The notes under the pieces were generated by a model. The model ran no database searches and was not told the origin of the DNA. It saw only the letters and a list, made by a program, of their open reading frames with translations. 64,000 nucleotides of DNA from positions 4,526,001 to 4,590,000 of the forward strand of contig CAKKNE010000003.1 of the NCBI GenBank assembly GCA_918797485.1, read 5' to 3'. Made by a program: the position numbers and the translations under genes. This document shows positions 1 to 61,104 of the stretch, one piece after another (the first letter of the stretch is position 1; each line of letters begins with the position of its first letter). Source of the DNA: Pelagomonas calceolata (taxonomy: Eukaryota).

Positions 1-72
1 AACAAATGTTGCAGGTCCAGCTATCCGATAACGGTACCATGGTACCACTCGGCCCTGCCCGGCCTAGATAGG

Positions 73-679
73 TAGAGAGAGAAACCTACTAGCCCTTCCT
101 ATCCTAGATATGTATCTCCCACTCTCTAATATTTGAGTCTATACATCGAGTGTCAAAAGCACTACGGTGTAACAACAGTTCACTATAAAACACTCTCGTA
201 GTCAGGTTGGCCCAGCCCTCGGCTGGTGAGCTAAGACCCTGCTACTATACCGTGACATAACGCTGCGACATACTCTTGCTAGGTTATGGGCCCACAGGGT
301 TCTGCCTATTGACGTAGAGTGTTTTACAGTGAATGCCTAGACAAGAAAAAACACCTAAAAAGAAATCCAAAAAGAAATCACCCCAAAAGAGCGAAGAAAG
401 TGAATACCCAGCAATGGATCAAGCTGAAATGAATCGGCTCATACAAAACGCGGTCGAACACGTACAAGCTGAGCTCCAGCAGAAACACGAAGAACGTATC
501 AAAGCGCTGGAAGCAAACCGCGAAGCGCAAATCAAAGTATACATCGACTCGGAGTGTCAAAAGCACTACGGTGTAACAACAGTTCACTATAAAACACTCT
601 CGTAGTCAGGTTGGCCCAGCCCTCGGCTGGTGAGCTAAGACCCTGCTACTCTACATAACGCTGCGACATACTCTTGCTA
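73..679 (+). mobile_element. Internally deleted Ty1/copia LTR retrotransposon (5' LTR 73-281, PBS 282-294, gag 5' remnant, partial 3' LTR ~538-679)
   Basis: 5-bp TSD ATAGG at 68-72 and 680-684; LTR TAGAGAGAG...CTCTTGCTA; PBS GGTTATGGGCCCA; ORF 333-605 starts as a gag-like basic/coiled-coil peptide and runs into the LTR. Confidence 0.9.
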
Positions 680-1118
680 ATAGGGGCAAAATTTAATAGA
701 CGGATAGTCTACTGCGGTATGTTTCTAGTGGACTCTTGGGAGGCTAGTAGGCCGGTAGTGTTTTATGGTAGCAAAAGTGGGCTAATCGGCGACGTAATAG
801 TGTGGTTCACGTCGGTCCTCAGGCTCTAATTTTTGGGATTCGAGCCTGAGTTCCCAGCCACCGTGACTTGGCCGGCGGCGATTTTGGCCAGGGCAGCCAC
901 ATACGTACGCAGGTCCAAACTCGTACCCCTCCATGGAGCTACACACTTTATTTCCCCCTGCATCGCAATGCTCTCTCGGCCCCGCCGTTCCGACGAGGAC
1001 TTTTTCCAGCTTGGACGACGCAGACTCATATTCCGCCCAAAACATTAGTCCTTTTTCGACTATCACGAGACCCGACTCACCGGAATCCACTTTCACCAAG
1101 GTCATGCCCCTACTGCTA

Positions 1119-2239: not shown

Positions 2240-2674
2240 AATGGACGCTCGTGTCCAGGGGGAATAGAGAAACCCTGGTAGCGTAAGAGTATGTCGCAGC
2301 GTTATGTAGAGTAGCAGGGTCCCAGCACACCAGCCAAAGGCTGTGCCTACCTACGGTACCTCACGGTACCTACGGTACCTAACTACGAGAGTGTTTTATA
2401 GCAAATTGATACATCGTAGTGCAACGTAGAGAGAAACCTACTAGCCCTCCCTACCCTAGATATGTATCTCCCACTCTCTAAATTTGAGTCTATACATCGA
2501 GTGTCTATCGCACTACGGTGTAAACACAATTCAAGTTCAACTTGAAGTTTGCTATAAAACACTCTCCGAGGCTCGTACTACTAGTAGTAGTTCGGTTGGC
2601 CCAGCCTTTGGCTGGTGAGCTACGAGCCTGTAGGACCCTGCTACTTTACATAACGCTACGACATACTCTTGCTA
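2240..2674. mobile_element. Copia LTR mosaic: PPT plus LTR start (+), inverted LTR 3' part (~2285-2410, -), full LTR 2427-2674 (+)
   Basis: Direct sequence match to LTR 73-281 and to the PPT context at 9786-9808. Confidence 0.85.
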
Positions 2675-9422: not shown

Positions 9423-9511
9423 TTCAAATTATCTATAGTATGATAGTACTAGTACCTACGGTACTACCATGGTACCTACGGTACCTACGGTACCTACGGT
9501 ACCGTGACTAC

Positions 9512-10009
9512 TAGAGAGAGAAACCTACTAGCCCTTCCTACCCTAGATATGTATCTCCCACTCTCTAATATTTGAGTCTATACATCGAGTGTCAAAAGCA
9601 CTACGGACGGTCCATTTGAAGGAGTTTACTGACTTTCCGAAAAAGGACGAGAAGGATCCAACAACAGTATTTACGGATATTCATTTCGAGAAGAAGTCTG
9701 TTGCTTATGAAGCCTATCACTTGTCACATGGACTTTGCCTGTGAATAGACTGAGTTGATACATCCTCTAGTGGAAGCGCATCTAGTGGACGCTCGCGTCC
9801 AGGGGGAGTAGAGAGAGAAACCTACTAGCCCTTCCTACCCTAGATATGTATCTCCCACTCTCTAATATTTGAGTCTATACATCGAGTGTCAAAAGCACTA
9901 CGGTGTAACAACAGTTCACTATAAAACACTCTTGCAGTCAGGCCTATCAGCTCTAAGCTGGTTAGCTAGGACCCTGCTACTTACATAACGCTGCGACATA
10001 CTCTTGCTA
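9512..10009 (+). mobile_element. Internally deleted copia element (partial 5' LTR 9512-9606, internal 3' end, PPT 9801-9808, 3' LTR 9809-10009)
   Basis: 5-bp TSD ACTAC at 9507-9511 and 10010-10014; AGGGGGAG directly precedes the 201-bp LTR. Confidence 0.9.
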
Positions 10010-10061
10010 ACTACCGTAGGTACCTACGGTACCGTAGGTACCGTACTATAGTACTAGTAGT

Positions 10062-10274
10062 AGTAGCCTGAGGGTCCTAGCTCACTGGCACCAGCCAGAG
10101 GCTGCCAGTGGGCCAAGCCAACTACGAGAGTGTTTTATTATAAACTGGTTTACACTGTAGCGTCGGTAGACACCCAGCGTATAGACTCAAACTTAGAGAG
10201 TGGGAGATACATATCTAGCCTATACTAGTAATCTAGGGTACCTACGGTAGGAAGGGCTAGAGGTTTCTCTCTCA
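10062..10274 (-). mobile_element. Diverged partial copia LTR
   Basis: Reverse complement of the LTR, carrying several 6-bp insertions. Confidence 0.85.
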
Positions 10275-13282: not shown

Positions 13283-13744
13283 GAGGGGACTGATGGATCT
13301 TGTCCCTGTCGGCGAGCCTCGTGGCCCTCAGCGCCACGTCTCTCAATTATGATACCGGAATGCGAACCTTGGCTGCCCACATTCCTGCAAAGTGTTATGG
13401 GGCACATGAGACAGCTGAAAGCTAGGCCATCCTAGAAACAAAATCAACATCCAACTTTGTGTATTATCCGAGTCGGCTCCGGTGAACATACCATCGGAAA
13501 CTTACCACTGGCAAGGAAATCAAGAAATCGAGCCGCCGCGCGAAGGCAGCAAACCCTGCGCGAGTGCGCCCACGACCCGTCGCGGGCGAAACAATTCTGG
13601 AACGTGGTGCTAGAAAACCGATGTTACCAACCCCGGGGGCCCTGGCTTCAGGCAGGTTCATCCCGGGGCCCGAACCTGTATGCATGTGTAGTGAACAAGG
13701 ATCTTTCCAACAATTTAGAGGAGAAGTCCGCAACATTATAAGGT

Positions 13745-13996
13745 CTATGGTTCTTTTTGTGTTTTTTGTTTCCTTTTCTACTGCTTCTAGACATTCACTG
13801 TAACTGAAAACTGCAATGGAAATACACGTCTAGTAGGATCCCAAGGTTCAACTGAGACGTATCCAAGCACAACCCGTACTAGGCGGAGCCTCGTGGGCCC
13901 ATAACCGTGACCTAGCAAGAGTATGTCGCAGCGTTATGTAAAGTAGTAGGGTCCTAGCTCACCAGCCAGAGGCTGGGCCAACTTGAAGCCAACTAC
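13745..13996 (-). mobile_element. Copia 5' LTR end, PBS and gag start
   Basis: TGGGCCCATAACC (interrupted by a 6-bp insertion) next to TAGCAAGAGTATG; TCTAGACATTCACTGTAA matches the gag start. Confidence 0.85.
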
Positions 13997-21991: not shown

Positions 21992-22598
21992 CTAGGTTGC
22001 CATTTACCCGACCGTGACTCGACTCATGTAGCGCATGCGCTACATGAGTAAACGGGCTATATGGGTAAATGGGCTATATAGGTATTTGGGTTATATGGGC
22101 GTTTGGGTTATAACCCAAATCCCAAATAACCCAAATACCCATATAGCCCAAACACCCATATAACCCAAATACATACCCATATAGCCCATTTACTCATGTA
22201 GCGCATGCGCTACATGAGTCTCGGAGGGGTTATTAACTCCAATCGCGGCCCGGGGTCAGTAACCCGGGTAATTACCCGTTAGTACGGGTTATATTAACCC
22301 TATTAACCCGGGATCTTATGGACCGTCCGGACGCCCGCCGCTTAACACGGGGGCGGACCCCAAATTTGAGATTCGAGTTCCTAGCCACTTTCCGGGGGCG
22401 ATTTTGGCTGTGGGGTCCCAAAGGGTCCCTTTGTACGCCCCGAGAGGCTGAGGCCCGCGCCAGTGGCCAGTGAGGCCCCCTCCCCTACCCCTCTATAAGA
22501 TCCTGAGGTAAATAATCCGTACTAACCGGTAATTACCCGGGTTATTAACCCCGGGCGGCGCCAGGGGTAAATAGCCCCTCAGGTAAATGCCAACCTAG
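21992..22598. mobile_element. hAT-like MITE (TIR CTAGGTTGCCATTTACC) carrying a nested foldback element
   Basis: TIRs; subterminal TAACCCGG repeats; right half matches 26950-27105; TSD degenerate. Confidence 0.8.
22022..22219. repeat. Foldback element with palindromic ends
   Basis: 28-bp perfect palindrome ACTCATGTAGCGCATGCGCTACATGAGT at both ends; inverted TGGG(C/T)TATA arrays inside; CTCG duplicated on both sides. Confidence 0.85.
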
Positions 22599-24855: not shown

Positions 24856-25476
24856 GATAATTAAAAAAGTTATTTTATGGTGCGGGTAATTTTAGTAAAA
24901 CGGGCTGAATCGGGAAAATACCGGCGTATGGGGCTGCTTTTGGCCCCAGGCACATTGCTGGGGGGTGCACGGGGCGGGGGACACCTGAGTGGTAATGGGC
25001 CGTGGCGGTGGGTCGGCCCGAGGGGGGGTGCGCCGCGCGCGCTGTTTCTAGTTTTAGGAGGAGCCTCTGAGTGCCATATTTTTTACTATTATACCTGTCA
25101 CGGTTATATACTAGTAATATCGAATTCAAGTTATAGTAGAACGCGGACGGCCCAGGTCACAAGCTCTTCGTGGCTGATGTACCCGCTGGCCGGGGTGATT
25201 CCGTCAAATTTGCACCCCGCGCTGCATGCAGCCCACGGACATCATAAGGAACAGTTGACCCAGCGGGACCTTCCCCCCTTTCCCCCGTCTTCCCTTCAAG
25301 TTTCATTTGCGGGTCCGGTTTTTTCGGAGTTTGCCAGATTATGCACTTCTGTGCCAGTATTGAACATACCGCAGTACTAATTTCTACGTCGATAGCGTAC
25401 TTTTTTTTTACATGTCGAGCAAGCGTACTTTTTTTAGTGGTACTCATTCGGAGTCATTCGGGGGAGTGACCTGGTA

Positions 25477-26644: not shown

Positions 26645-27105
26645 CTAGGTTGCCATTAACCGGTTAATAACCGGTAATTTGCCCATTATCACTCCTCGGA
26701 GGGGATCCGGGGTAAATAACCCGCTCAATAACCCGACGGGTTTTCGACTAAACCCGTTTAGTGAGATTAGCGAAAGACCCCCCCGGAAGAGCGGATTGAA
26801 GTGAACTTACTTTAGGTTCACCCCGGTGTTTTTACGGCGCCTACTTAGCGCCGGGCTTGATCCACTTGGATAAGCAGAAAGATACGGGATATAGGGAAAT
26901 ATCAGCTACGGGCCCAAGGCAAGTACCAAGTCATGTGGCCCGGCGCGGCCCAGGCCCGCGCCAGTGGCCCGTGAGGCCCCCTCCCCTACCCCTCTATAAG
27001 ATCCTGAGGTAAATAACCCGTACTAACCGGTAATTACCCGGGTTATTAACCCCGGGCCCGGGCGGCGCCAGGGGTAAATAACCCCTCAGGTAAATGGCAA
27101 CCTAG
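26645..27105. mobile_element. hAT-like MITE
   Basis: TIR CTAGGTTGCCATT / AATGGCAACCTAG; perfect 8-bp TSD CCTGTCTC at 26637-26644 and 27106-27113. Confidence 0.9.
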
Positions 27106-27131
27106 CCTGTCTCTATAATCGCGCTGGTAAG

Positions 27132-27319
27132 GTAGCAGGGTCCTGGCTCACCAGCCGAGGGCTGGGCCAACCTAGCTGCCAACCTAACTACGAGAGTGTT
27201 TTATAGCAAATTGTTGTTACACCGTAGTGTCAGAGACACTCGCTGTACTGTATAGACTCAAACTTAGAGAGTGGGAGATACATATCTAAGGTAGGAGGGC
27301 TAGTAGGTTTCTCTCTCTA
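27132..27319 (-). mobile_element. Copia LTR lacking its 3' end
   Basis: Reverse complement of the LTR, including the TAGAGAGAGAAACC start. Confidence 0.85.
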
Positions 27320-30641: not shown

Positions 30642-30710
30642 TAGCAAGAGTATGTCGCAGCGTTCTGTAAAGTAGCAGGGTCCTAGCTCACCAGCCAGAG
30701 GCTGGGCCTA
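30642..30710 (-). mobile_element. Copia LTR 3' end fragment
   Basis: TAGCAAGAGTATGTCGCAGCG...CAGCCAGAGGCTGGGCC. Confidence 0.85.
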
Positions 30711-30979
30711 ACCCATAAAGTAAGTTCACTTTATTTATTCCAACTTGAACTTGACTCGGAGCCTGAGGGGGGGGGGGGGGGTGGTGTAAAAACAGCCAAA
30801 TTTTAGGCCTTCCTTAATCATTTGTTTGTTTGTTTGTTTGTTTGTTTGTTTATCATGATTTATTTATGGCTTTATTTATTTAAATCTGCATGGGGTCACG
30901 GTATTCCGCGAATCTTCATTCTCAGCGAATCCCGAATCTCGAATCCCAAAAATAAGAGAGTATGTAAGATCGTGACCGC

Positions 30980-36097: not shown

Positions 36098-36444
36098 TGG
36101 GCCCATAACCTAGCAAGAGTATGTCGCAGCGTTGCGTAAATTAGCAACGGCGCTATTAAGCTTCCTCGTAGGGCTGGGCCAACCTAACTACGAGAGTGTT
36201 TTATAGCAAATTGTTGTTATATGTATTGGTCGCTCCTATTGAATCAGCACCGGGCCTCACAGGACTTGGATTTATCAGATCAAAAAGTGACACCAGTCTC
36301 TACACTTACATTGGTCCCGATGGAAAATGGTGCGCGATTGCAGTATTCGTAGATGACCTCCTAATCACTGGGACCGGGACCAGCACCACCAAGATAGACG
36401 AACTACGTACATAGGGTAGGAAGGGCTAGTAGGTTTCTCTCTCT
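36098..36444. mobile_element. Minus-strand copia LTR with PBS, interrupted by a plus-strand copia reverse-transcriptase fragment (~36255-36410)
   Basis: PBS 36098-36110; LGFIRSKSDTSLY...AVFVDDLLITG is a copia RT motif; LTR start at 36411-36444. Confidence 0.85.
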
Positions 36445-37020
36445 ACTACGGTACCTACGGTACCTACGGTACCTACCTACGGTACGGTACCTGCGGTACC
36501 TAGCTCTACGGTACCATGGTGCCTATGGCAGCTGATGGCGTGCAATGGCTGGCCCTACGTCGCACGTCTTAATTTGAATTCTTGAACGCACTTGCAGTCC
36601 AGTTTTGGGTACACCTCCTCAAACAACTGCACAATCCGTGGCAATCCGTGGCTTGTCCGGCCGGCGCGCCATGACGCCCGACGCCGACGAGCCAGCGCCC
36701 GCTGCTCCTCCGTCCGCGTCGCGCGCCGCGTCCGCTCGAAATCTTACAAGTACCGTGCTCTTTACGCGCCGCGGCGCGGGCCTCCAAAAGGGAGTCGCCC
36801 AGCAGTGCGCCTCGCGGCCCAGGATTGGCGCGGAAGAAGGAGGTCTTCGTCGCATCTAAACCGTTGCCGCGCGCCTTAGCCACGCGCCGCAGCGACCTGT
36901 CTCAGCGGCACACCCGCGCAGGCGCTTCGGTGCGCGGCCGCGCCTCGAGTCATCATTTTGTTCGCGCGGGCCGGACGATGAGAGAATCGCGACCTCACGG
37001 TCACGGCCGAATTTGATAGC

Positions 37021-38506: not shown

Positions 38507-39599
38507 ATGCGCGGCGCGCTGGTTGCCGTCGCCGCCGGCGCGGCCGCGTGGGCGCCCGCGTTTCGTTACGACGCGCTGCCGCGACGACCCACCAGACGCG
38601 CTGCCGCGACGACCCACGGGGACCAGATAGTCGTGGCCCTGACGCGCGAGGCCGGCAAGAACGGCGGCCTCGCGCGCGCGCTCGCCGAGCATCACATAGA
38701 AACGGTCGAGGTGCCCTGCGTCTCCACCCAGAGGACGCCCCAGATGGACGCCCTTCTTGATAGCGCGCTGCTTTTTGCAGAAGACCCCTGGGACTGGGTC
38801 GTCGTGACGTCGCCCGAGGCCGCCAAGACGTTTGGCGCGGCGGTCGCGCGCGCGGGCCTCGGCGCGACGCGCGATGCGAAATGGAGGGCCTTCCGGCTCG
38901 CGGCCGTCGGCGGCGCGACGGCCGCGGCGCTGGACGCGTGTCAGGATTTGAGGCCGTGGCGCGGGAGTTCGTTCACGCCCGCGACGGCGACGGCCGCCGC
39001 ACTTGCGAAGGCGCTGCCCGACGACTCGGGCCGGCGCGTGCTCTTCCCCGCGTCGGCGCTCGCCGCGCCGACCTGTGTGGAAATCAAAATTTTACGGCGC
39101 GTTCGTGCTGAATCATCGCGTCGACCTCCACGCCATCGACGCGACACCTGCTCGATGGCGTGGCGATGTCGGTTCTTCACCGCTCGACGGAGCCAGCGCG
39201 GCCACGTCATCGCCGAGAAATGACTTAGTGAAGAATTGTCGGGTGCACCCGACACACTGGTTGATTTCCACACAGGCGCCGACGCTCGAGGAAGGGCTCA
39301 AGGAGAGAAACTTCGCCGTGACACGCGTCGACGCGTACACGACGGCGCCGGCGCCGTGGTCTCCTGAAGATGCCGCGGCGGCGGCCTCCGCGGATGTCGT
39401 CGCCGTCGGCTCGCCGTCCGCCGCGCGCGTCTGGGCCGCGCGCGCTTCCGTGAACGTCCGCGCCGCGTGCGTCGGCGCGACGTCGGCCGACGCGTGCGTC
39501 GAACTGGGCTTCGGGCGGGACCGCGTCTTCGCGCCGGCGAAGCCGGGCCTCGCGGGCTGGGCGGGCGCGGTGCGGGACGCCGTCGCGGCGCTCGCCTAG
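38507..39599 (+). CDS. hemD: Uroporphyrinogen-III synthase, plastid-targeted; intron 39065-39275
   Basis: VALTREAGKN, WVVVTSPEAA, LAAVGGATA, VLFPASALA|APTLEEGL, RVDAYTT, VGSPSA. Confidence 0.9.
39073..39275 (+). mobile_element. Introner element (best-preserved copy)
   Basis: Perfect 15-bp TIR CTGTGTGGAAATCAA; 8-bp TSD GCGCCGAC; removing one TSD plus the element restores the frame. Confidence 0.95.
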
Positions 39600-52604: not shown

Positions 52605-52709
52605 AGTAGTATATGACTTGTAGCCGTTTTTACATCAACGCGGAAAGTGAACGGGTTTTCCCGTGAACGTCCGTTTTGATGTAAAAACGGCTACAAGTCA
52701 TATACTACT
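52605..52709. repeat. Hairpin element with perfect 34-bp arms
   Basis: AGTAGTATATGACTTGTAGCCGTTTTTACATCAA and its exact reverse complement. Confidence 0.9.
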
Positions 52710-56688: not shown

Positions 56689-58569
56689 ATGAGCGGCCGC
56701 CTCAGCCCGGCGAAGATGCTGGGCGCCTGGCTCCACGCGAACGGCAGCGACGGCGAACTGAGCCTGCACGACGACGCGGAGCCCGCGAGCGTCGAGGAGG
56801 AGAACGCGAGCCTCAAGCGGCGCGTCGCCGCCCTGGAGGCCACGCTGCGGCGCGTGCGCGGCGAGCGGGCCGACCTCGAACGCGTGCGACGGGTCATGAA
56901 GCGCAACTCGAGACTGCGGCGCAAGCTCGGCCTCGCGCTCGTCGCGTCCTACGTCCTCTACTACTGCTGCTGGAACCTGAGCTTCCTGGCGGGCTACAAC
57001 AAGCTGCGGGGGCGGCCGCGCGACTGCGCCGTGACGCGCTACGGCGGACTCATCCTGGAGGGCGGCGGCGTGAAGGGCGTCGCGTACGGCGGCGCGGCGG
57101 CGGCCTTGGAAGCTTATGGTTTATTGGATCGGCGGCACGTGACCCACTTCGCGGGCACGTCGGCCGGCGCGATGATGGGCGCGCTCCTCGCGGCGCGGAC
57201 GCCCGCCGAGGACATCGCGCGCTATCTCCTGGATTTCCCGTTCGAGCGGCTCATGGATGGCGGCCACGCGCTCGCGAACGCGGGGCGCCTGCAGCGGAGG
57301 CTAGGCTGGTTCCGGGGCGACGAGGTCGAGCGGGCGATGCGCGAATTACTCGACAAGGCGGGCGTCGGCGGCAACGCGACGCTCGGCGAGCTGGAGAAGG
57401 CCCGGAAAACGACGCTGCGGCTGTCCGTGACGGACCTGACGAGGGGTCGCCACGCGTGGCTCGACGCGACGAACATGAACAACGTGTCCGTCGCGCGCGC
57501 CGGCGCGCGAATCACTTTCGCCGTGCCTCTCGCGGGACGCGCGGCGGCGTGTCGTTCGCCGCTCGAGTCAGCCCGCGCGGCCGGGTGTGCACCCGACCCA
57601 CCGGCTGATTTTCGCGCAGGCGCGCGCCGTGCGGGCCTCGTCGGCCGTGCCCTTCGTCTACCCGCCGGTGCAGCTCGGGAAGCGGCTCTTCGTGGACGGC
57701 GGCCTCGTGCGGAACCTGGCGTGGGACGCGTTCGGCCACTGGGGCGTCGCGCGGAAGAGCAACCGGAAGCGGCGGTGGGTCCCGCGGCGGCGGCGCGCGG
57801 TCCTCGCGCTGTCGATCCGGGGGCCCGACCGCGCGTGGGCCGAAGATTTTTCCCTCCGGGGGGGCGACGGCGAGGAGGAAGACGACGAGCCCGCGCCGCC
57901 GCGGCGGGCGTTCTTTCCCTTCTTCGCCGGTCCCGACGAGGAGCAGGAGACCCTGAGGCGGCGCGCCCTCAACCGGCGGGGCTTCGCCGGGCTCCGGGCG
58001 GGGCGAAAGGCAAACTTCACGGCGCCTTCGTGCCGAGTCATCGACCTCCGCGCCATCGACGCGGCGTCTGCTCGACAGCGTGGCGGCGAGGGGCTCTCGC
58101 CGCTCGACTTAGCCGGCGGAGCCGCGTCGTCGCCGAGAAACGAGTTTGCGAGATAATTATCGGGTGCGTCCGACTCACCGGTCGATTTGCGCGCAGGCTC
58201 TGGGCCTTTGGCACGAAGCTGCTGGAACTCGTCGCGTTCGGCGCGGACTCGCCGAACGCGCTCCCGCCGGACGGCGCCAATCTGGACGTGGTGAAGATCG
58301 ATACATTAGATGTCCAGGCGGCGGAGTTCGACCTGGGGTCGCGCGAACGGGCGCACCTCGTCGCGTCCGGCTACCTGTCCGTCGCGCGGCACCTCGAGGC
58401 CTGCGGCCACGGGCGGTCGCCCGCGCCGCCGCCGTGGCTGGTCGGGTTACTGCGGAACGCATCGCTGGACTTATACGAGCTCATGGCCAAGGACGCAGCT
58501 TTGTCGCTGCTGAAGCGCGGCATCCGGCCGCAGGAGGCGGTCAAGCCAACGGTTTATCCGGAGCTCTGA
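56689..58569 (+). CDS. Patatin-like phospholipase; introns 57493-57619 and 57991-58196
   Basis: EGGGVKG; AGTSAG; AVRASSAVP; FVDGGL; both splices restore the frame. Confidence 0.85.
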   Translation: MSGRLSPAKMLGAWLHANGSDGELSLHDDAEPASVEEENASLKRRVAALEATLRRVRGERADLERVRRVMKRNSRLRRKLGLALVASYVLYYCCWNLSFLAGYNKLRGRPRDCAVTRYGGLILEGGGVKGVAYGGAAAALEAYGLLDRRHVTHFAGTSAGAMMGALLAARTPAEDIARYLLDFPFERLMDGGHALANAGRLQRRLGWFRGDEVERAMRELLDKAGVGGNATLGELEKARKTTLRLSVTDLTRGRHAWLDATNMNNVSVARAGARITFAVPLAGRAAACRSPLESARAAGCAPDPPADFRAGARRAGLVGRALRLPAGAAREAALRGRRPRAEPGVGRVRPLGRRAEEQPEAAVGPAAAARGPRAVDPGARPRVGRRFFPPGGRRRGGRRRARAAAAGVLSLLRRSRRGAGDPEAARPQPAGLRRAPGGAKGKLHGAFVPSHRPPRHRRGVCSTAWRRGALAARLSRRSRVVAEKRVCEIIIGCVRLTGRFARRLWAFGTKLLELVAFGADSPNALPPDGANLDVVKIDTLDVQAAEFDLGSRERAHLVASGYLSVARHLEACGHGRSPAPPPWLVGLLRNASLDLYELMAKDAALSLLKRGIRPQEAVKPTVYPEL

Positions 58570-58600: not shown

Positions 58601-61104
58601 CTAGGATGAGGCGTCGGTGTCGTCGTCTGAGTCGGAGGCGTCTTCTTCTTCTTCCGCCGACGACGACTCAGAGGCCGACTCGTCGTCGTCGTCTCGCGCC
58701 GACTCGTCCCCCGCCGAGGCCGACTCGTCGTCGTCGTCTCGCGCCGAGGCCGACTCGTCGTCTTGCGCCGACTCGTCTTCCGACGAGGCCGACTCGTCGT
58801 CGTCGTCCCCCGCCGAGGCCGATTCGTCGTCGTCATTCTCGTCGGCGCTGTCAGAGTCGTCATCGTCGTCCTCGCCGGTACTCGAAGCAGAGCCAGAGGC
58901 GTTCTCGTCGTCTGACTCGTCCGAGTCCGACTCGGAGCTCGCGCCCGACCCGGATTCCACCTCTACCTCTTTTTGGCCCGGGCCCTCGGTAGGCGGCGTG
59001 ACCTGCCGGACGGGCGCCGCCAGCGCGTTGCGCTTGACCGCGCCGCGCGCGCGCGCGGCCGCATCGCGCGCGTCGCGCCCGCCGCGCGCCGCCCGCTGAG
59101 CCGCCGCGCGCGCGACCGCGACCGCGCCGTCGGCGGCCCTTTCGCACGCGCGCCGGAACTTGCGAGCGAGCGCGGCGAGGCGCTTGCGGCCGGCCCTCAG
59201 CGCCGCAGCGTGAGCTTTTGTCGCCGCGTCGCGCGCGACGCCTGGAGCGACCTCGTCGAGCACGATCCGCCAGCACGCCTCGACCCGATCCTCAAAAAGA
59301 CGCTCCTCCTCGTCCATCACTCTCGACGTCCAGAAGGAACGCCACCGCTCGACGTTGCCGGCGTGCGCGGGGCCGAGTCCCGAGGCGACGCATCGACACA
59401 CGTAGTCGACGCCCAGCGCGTAGGCGTCCCGAATGAGCGGGTGCGGCGGCGCGGGGTGCTTTTTGACGACGCGCTCGGCCGCCTCGGCCGCCTCGGCCGC
59501 GCGGCCCGCGCCCTCGGCGCGAGCGGCGGCGCGCAACGCCGCGGCGCACGCTAGCAGCGAAACTCGCAGAGGCCCATCGGGCGCCCTATTGGCCGCCCCT
59601 TCATTAATGCGCGCCAGCGCCGCCGCGGCCCGGCCGTTTCTTGGCGGAGCGGGCGGCTCCACCGCCGGAGCCAGAGGCCGATCAACGGGAACAATGACGG
59701 GGTGCGGGTCCGGCCGGAACCAGAACAACGGCTTCCGCAGGTTCTTCGGCCGGCGCTCGTCTTGTAGAGCCTCCTCGTTCTTTACGACACACTTGTCGCA
59801 CGCCACCTCGGAGTGGCAGAGGCCGTGGGCGGGAATGCCAAAGTTCGCGGGCCGGGGGTGCCACGGCGCCACGCCGCAGCGGCAGAAGAGGCACTCGGTC
59901 TTGTGTCGGTCGCCTCTCGACGCGAACGGCGCGACTGTCACCGAATGGTTGGCGTGCTGCAGCGCCCGGATCCAGTAGCGGAGCTGCAGCGCGGCCTTGG
60001 CGTCGCCGCCGGGCGCCGCGGCCCAGACTCTCCCCGCCGCCGCGCGCGAATCTTTCGGCGGCGCGGCCGATTCCGGTCCCCCGGGCGCCCCGGCGACTCC
60101 CGGCGCCAGCGGGCCCCCGGACGCGTCGAGCCGGAGCACGCCGTCGGCGCCGAACGCGCGGCGTGGCGCGAACGCCAGCGTCGCGGGGACGCGCTCGTCG
60201 CGTAAATCAAAAACGAGCGCGACCGCGTCGCCGACGGCGTAGGCCCACTTGCGGTCGTCGCCTGTGCATAAATCAAATTGTCGCGGCGCGTCCAACGACC
60301 TCCACGCCATCGACGCGACGCCAGCTCGATGACATGGCGAGATGGTCTATTGCCGCTCGTTCCAGCCAACACGGCCGCGTTCTCGCCGAGATGTGACTTT
60401 GTGAAGAAGTGCACCCGACTCACTGGTTGATTTGCGCACAGGTCGTCGCGCGGCCGGCCGACGACGAGCCGCAGCTCGAGGCGGGAACTTTCGAGGACGG
60501 CGAAGCACAGGACCCAGGCGTCGCCGAGGCGCCGAGCCAGCGCCTTCGCGGCCGCCGCCCGTTGCGCGGGGTCCGCCGCGCGCGCCGCCCAGCCGCGCTC
60601 GCGCCGCCGTCCCCGCGCAGGCGGCGGCGCGAGGACGTCGGCGTCCCCCCCACAGTCCGCGGGCGCGACGCCGGTCGCCGCTGCTCCAATGGCGCGCTCC
60701 GCGGCGCGCCGGCCCAGTCTCAAACTCAAGAAGCCGTAGCGCGCGCCCGAGCCCCGCACCAACCACCGCGTCTTTCCGCGGCGCTCCTCCTCGCTCACCC
60801 CCGGGTACCAGGCGCCGTCGTTGGCGAGCCGCGCCTCCAGGCTTGGGCCGTAGCGGCAGCGCGCGGAGGCGGCCCGCGACCAACCCGTGAGTTTTCCCTT
60901 TGGGCACGGCACGGCTGGTTTATCCGGGCGCGCGCCGGGCCGCACCTTCTCCGGCCGCGCCGGCGGCGTCTCGGACGGCTCGGGCAGCCGGAGCGCGGGG
61001 GCGAAGGGCGCATCTAGCAGGCCGGCTCCGGTCGCCGCCGGGTCGTCGTACGCGCCGCGGCAGTAGCGGCTCCGGAGCCCGGAGGGCGCGATTCTTGGCT
61101 TCAT
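58601..61104 (-). CDS. Hypothetical protein with Cys/His cluster and acidic repeat tail; intron 60262-60449
   Basis: Introner with perfect TSD GTCGTCGC joins ORF 59938-61104 to ORF 58601-60310; CLFC..HGLCH..CDKC; ESASARDDDD repeats. Confidence 0.65.

Follow-up and report, generated by a model that had tools for sequence, protein, structure and literature searches.

The 64,000-nucleotide stretch of Pelagomonas calceolata DNA analysed here (the window) contains the remains of what is very probably a decayed Ty1/Copia family whose long terminal repeats (LTRs) end in TA…TA, and which was likely primed by half of the initiator tRNA-Met (tRNA-iMet), likely integrated by its own integrase, and likely inserted preferentially at or close to GTAC-rich arrays. 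Element 1 (window 73-679) and element 2 (window 9512-10009) are internally deleted Copia LTR retrotransposon copies with an LTR of ~203 bp and 5-bp target-site duplications (TSDs). Between them they present the two-LTR layout of a primer-binding site (PBS) after the 5′ LTR, a polypurine tract (PPT) before the 3′ LTR and a 5-bp TSD, with the PBS and PPT known from different deleted copies because neither element is whole. At least seven further LTR copies or remnants lie elsewhere in the window.

Element 1
68..72, plus strand: left TSD, ATAGG, from the TSD register test
73..281, plus strand: complete 5′ LTR, 209 bp including a 6-bp insertion, TA…TA ends
184..190, plus strand: TATA-box-like TATAAAA within the 5′ LTR, present in most LTR alignment rows
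249..256, unstranded: footprint-type 6-bp insertion AC-C-GT-G-AC in the 5′ LTR
282..294, plus strand: PBS, adjoining the 5′ LTR and complementary to initiator tRNA-Met nt 27-39
333..537, plus strand: N-terminal part of the first ORF, taken as gag from its position and truncated by the internal deletion, 27 relatives
538..679, plus strand: 3′ LTR remnant that spans LTR positions ~68-209 and has a footprint-type insertion (546-553)
680..684, plus strand: right TSD, ATAGG

Element 2
9452..9511, unstranded: GTAC-rich array left of the element, its last bases (9507-9511) being the TSD ACTAC
9512..9606, plus strand: 5′ LTR remnant, 95/95 bases identical to its own 3′ LTR
9607..9747, plus strand: C-terminal tail of pol, the same tail as downstream of RNase H in locus L042
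9801..9808, plus strand: PPT, adjoining the 3′ LTR
9809..10009, plus strand: complete 3′ LTR, TA…TA
10010..10045, unstranded: TSD ACTAC (10010-10014), then GTAC-rich array

Other copies and relics
2285..2674: two diverged LTR copies, one on the minus strand (2285-2422, containing a GTAC array) and one on the plus strand (2428-2674)
10061..10273, minus strand: degraded LTR copy
13669..13986, minus strand: LTR remnant with the decayed beginning of gag, an RNase H relic (13669-13740) and a PBS split by a footprint-type insertion
27126..27319, minus strand: LTR copy lacking its 3′ end
30642..30713, minus strand: LTR 3′ remnant, with a GTAC array ~65 bp past its end
36098..36445, minus strand: 5′ LTR and PBS, the LTR split by an inverted reverse-transcriptase (RT) fragment, with a GTAC array at 36451-36511
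36256..36408, plus strand: Copia RT relic with an FVDD motif, 66% identity over 47 aa to P0005 (RVT_2)

The outer ends of element 1 read TAGAGAGAG at 73 and CTCTTGCTA at 679, and its TATAAAA motif is a putative promoter element. The element is missing everything from gag codon ~69 through LTR position ~68, and element 2 lacks the interval from LTR position 95 through the end of pol. The LTR pairs are near-identical (127/128 aligned bases in element 1, 95/95 in element 2), and both elements are therefore regarded as young single insertions that were deleted later. That the deletions followed insertion is indicated by the loss of part of one LTR from each element, since retrotransposition rebuilds both. 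The insertion at 249..256 is likewise younger than the integration of element 1, as the 3′ LTR lacks it. TRIM status was considered and rejected, one LTR being incomplete in each window element and the deletion points varying between copies.

Termini of independent copies

The first-pass annotation had placed the LTR ends at 5′-TAG...CTA-3′ from the TSDs ATAGG and ACTAC, with the PBS and PPT abutting the same ends. Every coordinate it gave proved exact, with the PBS (282-294) directly following the 5′ LTR and the PPT (9801-9808) directly preceding the LTR at 9809, and the TSD register and independent copies agree with this placement. The independent copies come from a metagenome scan whose 3′ anchor stopped 4 nt before the LTR end, leaving the last four bases free, and which yielded at least 123 stretches in at least 122 loci (L001-L122). 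The retrotransposon was present in marine metagenomes as well as in isolate-type runs, whose contigs total 32-83 million letters. In end counts that pool the metagenome loci, among the matches listed, with the window copies, 87/97 distinct 3′ ends read GCTA followed by divergence, 2/97 read GCCA and 8/97 something else, while 26/35 distinct 5′ ends start with TA and 0/35 with TG; canonical TG…CA termini thus amount to two CA ends and no TG start. The inner LTR boundaries beside the PBS and PPT are also TA. As at least 87 distinct flanks adjoin a TA end, the form that moved was the TA form.

Pairing of the two ends used anchors that contained the termini with one mismatch allowed, and so tests the register rather than the frequency of ends. 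Among the matches listed, 5/24 paired ends show an exact 5-bp TSD when aligned in the TA…TA register, against 25/3387 cross-pairs (0.74%; P ~8e-7), and 3/21 do so when the three window rows are left out (P ~5e-4). The TSD-confirmed copies are those at window 73 and 9512 and in loci L024, L075 and L107. Other registers score at most 2, save two 4-bp registers that are implied by the 5-bp ones. A 5-mer would match locally by chance with a probability of ~0.0008 in element 1 and ~0.02 in element 2, which has low-complexity flanks. Misassigned ends, or chance TSDs in low-complexity flanks, would be suggested by the repetitive flanks and by the 19/24 paired ends without a TSD among the matches listed. 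Some of these rows derive from the PPT or are paired wrongly, and a contig assembled from short reads may be chimeric across a repeat. This explanation is extremely improbable given that conservation falls sharply past TA on both sides, that the null TSD rate of 0.74% derives from the same flanks, and that contig breaks cluster at 73 and 679: among the matches listed, isolate-type contigs stop at 679 in 4/4 runs and at 73 in 2/4 runs, with diverse flanks.

A copy that was TG…CA at insertion could also have acquired TA ends afterwards by cytosine deamination or a RIP-like process, as each end shows a C-to-T change on the joined strand. The near-uniform change at 97 distinct sites (among the matches listed) and at the inner boundaries makes this very unlikely, as does the retention of internal CA and TG in young, near-identical LTR pairs. 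The LTR keeps 12 CA and 11 TG dinucleotides, and the ends are therefore not the product of a general CA-to-TA decay.

Integrase specificity and published TA-ended elements

To our knowledge, terminal CA is treated as a near-universal integrase recognition site. The LTR termini of the present family form an inverted repeat at 7/9 terminal bases. Because both ends have changed alike (CA to TA on the joined strand) with this repeat kept, the integrase at least accepts TA, and it has probably co-evolved with the TA ends, as judged from the termini themselves. The first-pass annotation inferred an integrase of altered end specificity; the rarity that it implied for TA ends is overstated, as TATA-ended Copia elements are published in lotus, grape and Arabidopsis (PMC9804982). 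The lotus account distinguishes eight types of non-canonical Copia end, among them TATA with 154 copies and LTRs averaging 229 bp (PMC9804982), and TATA-ended elements are also reported from a marine annelid (PMC8220671). These TATA-class elements share with the present family the TA…TA inverted-repeat ends and a short LTR (229 bp in lotus against ~203 bp here). They differ in that the family described here has a likely stramenopile host, a half-tRNA site, TA ends as its norm and GTAC arrays.

According to the lotus study, TATA and other non-TGCA Copia elements mostly cluster with TGCA relatives, and elements with differing ends, TGCA included, group together, which its authors ascribe to recent mutation (PMC9804982). 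Such clustering fits integrase tolerance as well as altered specificity, so a novel specificity is only one reading. It is quite possible, if short of an even chance, that an ordinary Copia integrase, either the family's own or a helper acting in trans, takes TA nearly as readily as CA and that founder mutations were simply amplified. The lotus clusters speak for such tolerance, together with the three copies here that end in CA and the fact that no autonomous copy was found, whereas the same change at both ends, the 7/9 inverted repeat and the absence of any TG start among 35 5′ ends (among the matches listed) argue against it. The CA ends lie at L001:1205-1208, at L010:5615-5618 and on the minus strand of L078, none with a TSD or a TG start. 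The two of these three copies that were inspected carry no other evident common variant in the last 90 nt, and the CA ends fit single T-to-C mutations.

The suggestion that the family would be missed by LTR finders holds for a strict LTRharvest run ("TGCA, one mismatch") and is overstated for LTR_retriever, whose motif library includes TATA (PMC8220671). The window copies would escape detection mainly because each lacks part of one LTR. Diatom CoDi3.2, CoDi4.2 and CoDi4.3, likened here by description, are stramenopile Copia elements that also lack a TG/CA terminal repeat (PMC2806351). TA ends and half-tRNA priming are each known separately, and novelty is limited accordingly, since TATA Copia elements are published, TATA stands in the LTR_retriever list and half-tRNA priming defines the hemiviruses. 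The GTAC-array association and the stereotyped 6-bp insertions described below are new in this analysis. In the open literature covered, with Repbase, Dfam and subscription journals outside its scope, neither these two features nor the TA-ended family were found described. The TA ends alone are of modest interest, and array co-location and the 6-bp scar are the more useful by-products. With ~90% of copies ending symmetrically in TA (among the matches listed), the family offers a natural substrate pair for questions of how integrase reads its ends.

Primer-binding site

The half-tRNA-iMet primer site proposed from the first reading is upheld as a prediction, as the PBS complement fits the anticodon half of the tRNA and the site abuts the LTR. 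Drosophila copia has the identical 13-mer, also adjoining its LTR. The PBS 13-mer occurs three times in the window against 0.05 expected, and adjoins the LTR in 17/132 anchor rows among the matches listed. By hand count on the human initiator tRNA sequence given in PMC8274982, its reverse complement equals nt 27-39. A 15-mer containing the PBS also picked out 120 viral loci, in which 109 matches fall inside called tRNAs and 107 of these are Met-CAT, with the match lying across the anticodon. The PBS is thus likely a hemivirus-type half-tRNA site, predicted from comparison with human and viral-locus tRNAs rather than the host's own; the tRNA search found no tRNA within the 64-kb window.

Hemiviruses start cDNA synthesis at nucleotide 40 of the half-tRNA (PMC1181622), half-tRNA priming in this group is likewise described in PMC8515867, and the Osser, Bryco and Gymco-II lineages are also reported to use a half-tRNA (PMC6317226). 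The trait does not track the RT tree according to PMC1181622. The present family shares a Copia-type RT and an anticodon-half tRNA-iMet PBS with hemiviruses such as Drosophila copia and 1731, yeast Ty5 and Volvox Osser, as well as plant Osser, Bryco and Gymco-II, and differs from them in its TA…TA ends and in an RNase H that falls in a divergent environmental clade.

Coding relics and Copia identity

The Copia assignment of the first-pass annotation is borne out by the RT relic, the RNase H relics and a gag-RNase H fusion, all by identity to RVT_2 proteins. In locus L042 an RNase H is preserved just ahead of the pol tail known from window 9607..9747. This RNase H has six longer relatives that are 41-67% identical, five of them with RVT_2, and the L042 RNase H and pol tail alone gave no Pfam match. 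P0192 is a gag start fused in frame to an L042-type RNase H. In a quick tree that covered the L042 fragment (21% of columns) and 52 of the 148 eligible proteins, none of them a named hemivirus or reference protein, the family is separated from typical Copia proteins and falls in a divergent 38-row clade (SH-aLRT 100) whose environmental members are unnamed.

Neither a full-length copy nor an integrase of the TA-ended family was recovered in the metagenome, viral and prokaryote scans, and a pol ORF was absent from metagenome loci of at least 1.5 kb in an ORF and motif screen. Queries with LTR+PBS or with proteins returned nothing related from viral and prokaryote sequences, 32 loci gave no tblastn/blastn match, and the gag search returned only fragments of 122-168 aa. 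The order of integrase before RT is observed only in the distant relatives P0024, P0030 and P0037. In the window, the RT fragment at 36220-36410 sits inverted inside a 5′ LTR, and the relic at 36256-36408 could belong to a sister family; it matched no contigs in three isolate-type DNA runs and one RNA run, which is not proof of absence.

In the sister-clade Copia polyproteins P0024, P0030, P0034 and P0037 (2100-3500 aa), a C5 DNA methyltransferase (DNMT) domain lies upstream of a divergent integrase and RT. P0021, the only protein in the nearer clade whose N-terminal part is long, gave no DNMT match, and the pol of the TA-ended family itself is missing; nothing links the sister-clade domain to this family. 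DNMTs are reported in LINE, DIRS and Gypsy elements, with none in Symbiodinium Copia (PMC5890265); Copia is mentioned in PMC12344493.

Proposed insertion cycle

As in Ty1/Copia biology generally, transcription from the LTR would start the cycle, and the 5′ half of tRNA-iMet would pair with the PBS and prime reverse transcription. RNase H would then take off both primers, tRNA and PPT, exactly at the LTR edge. Because the primers would be removed flush, the cDNA would be blunt and end in TA…TA, with no 3′ trimming needed. Integrase would then join the terminal TA-3′OH ends across a 5-bp stagger. The window copies were deleted once inserted and later scarred by footprint-type insertions.

GTAC arrays beside LTR ends

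Among the matches listed, GTAC occurs within 25 nt of the 3′ end in 63/97 flanks and within 25 nt of the 5′ end in 13/32, against 537/8182 low-GC control 25-mers (6.6%), a co-location of LTR ends and GTAC arrays about tenfold over chance. GTAC density drops from 54 to 3 per kb across 400 bp from the LTR ends (among the matches listed). In the window, which was not chosen by the scan, 6/11 GTAC clusters lie at or inside LTR copies. The arrays, made of 9-bp units in either orientation, are found at window 2356, 2698, 9452, 10020, 30557, 36451, 38433, 46577 and 50929, mostly at LTR ends and some beside other repeats. In loci L039, L040 and L045, a 1249-codon ORF lies between an LTR with its adjoining array and another GTAC array ~5.8 kb away in the opposite direction.

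Insertion of the elements into the arrays is suggested because three of the five TSD-confirmed copies (L024, L075 and window 9512) have an array on both flanks. Empty alleles of the TSD-confirmed sites were not recognised among the matches listed. The arrays could instead grow at LTR ends through repeated insertion and excision, at or close to the terminal TA, of a DNA transposon with TA or GTAC as its target, while Copia would have no target preference of its own. In many 3′ flanks the terminal TA is indeed extended at once by footprint-like sequence, the LTR at window 2356 contains an array, one footprint in element 1 postdates its insertion, and transposon cycling would also erase TSDs. We nevertheless consider such growth after insertion rather unlikely, since array-sequence TSDs directly adjoin the LTR in L024, L075 and window 9512, arrays also occur far from LTRs, and 3′ flanks begin at many phases of the array unit.

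Insertion into pre-existing arrays would give the family a candidate targeting rule for a compact genome. Ty5 and Ty1 are Copia elements with a strong local insertion bias; such a bias would be held in common with them, the associated feature here being the GTAC array. The fuller scenario, an algal, deep-branching Copia lineage with a TA-recognising integrase targeted to GTAC arrays that were built by repeated hairpin-type DNA-transposon excision, is speculative and in our estimation improbable. If true, one class of mobile element would lay safe landing sites for another in a gene-dense genome.

Footprint-type insertions and other repeats

Among distinct 6-bp insertions in LTR copies, 16/17 form the pattern XY-C-revcomp(XY)-G-XY, against 2/17 for a control pattern. 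For the 12 dinucleotides with at least one A or T, the window holds 67 such 8-mers, whereas each of 30 local shuffles holds 4-17; loci L001-L122 hold 1257 (all 16 dinucleotides), against 418-483 for other C/G middle pairs, among the matches listed. The motif is four times denser outside the 13 listed ORFs. Examples lie at window 249, 546, 818, 843, 860, 2530, 9292, 9501, 13904, 25097-25132 and 30742-30767.

The pattern of the insertions makes them likely hairpin-opening and end-joining scars left after excision of a DNA transposon, and fits a source transposon that has C…G ends and duplicates 2 bp of its target. For Ac/Ds, footprints of broadly this palindromic form have been described (PMC5873905). 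Neither searches for terminal inverted repeats nor mapping of repeat boundaries revealed the source transposon. Footprints as 2-residue insertions in host proteins were also considered, and found no supporting case in nine gene clusters. A further footprint type, with TA or GTAC as its target, may be represented by the 9-bp array unit. The 6-bp scar, present with all 16 dinucleotides, marks intergenic DNA and may record DNA-transposon activity hidden from repeat annotation.

Several other repeats were observed. MITE-like inverted-repeat elements at window 22021-22220 (200 bp) and 52605-52709 (105 bp) have 2-3 bp duplications, each within a footprint-type motif. In another repeat family, at window 22437-22598 and 26938-27110 and in L031, L063 and L079, a hairpin-rich stretch leads up to a sharply defined 3′ end in CTAG; we take this to be possibly a Helitron end. 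GC-rich repeats dispersed in genic DNA, some ending in ACAG or GCAG, lie at window 39121-39285, 49877, 57590, 58041-58206 and 60296-60451, and are, we assume, possibly introner-like elements.

Genomic setting

The genome of the pelagophyte Pelagomonas calceolata is reported to have 63% GC and six chromosomes, and the term "LTR" is absent from the main text of that report (PMC9481584). The window consists of GC-rich eukaryotic DNA with genes that include a cluster of glycosyltransferase, methyltransferase and esterase genes. Of ten window proteins that were looked up, nine have an entry in the protein collection. Across window 1100-32100, long single-ORF glycosyltransferase, methyltransferase and SGNH-esterase genes are packed among transposon debris and GC content is lower, an arrangement resembling a variable surface-glycan region.
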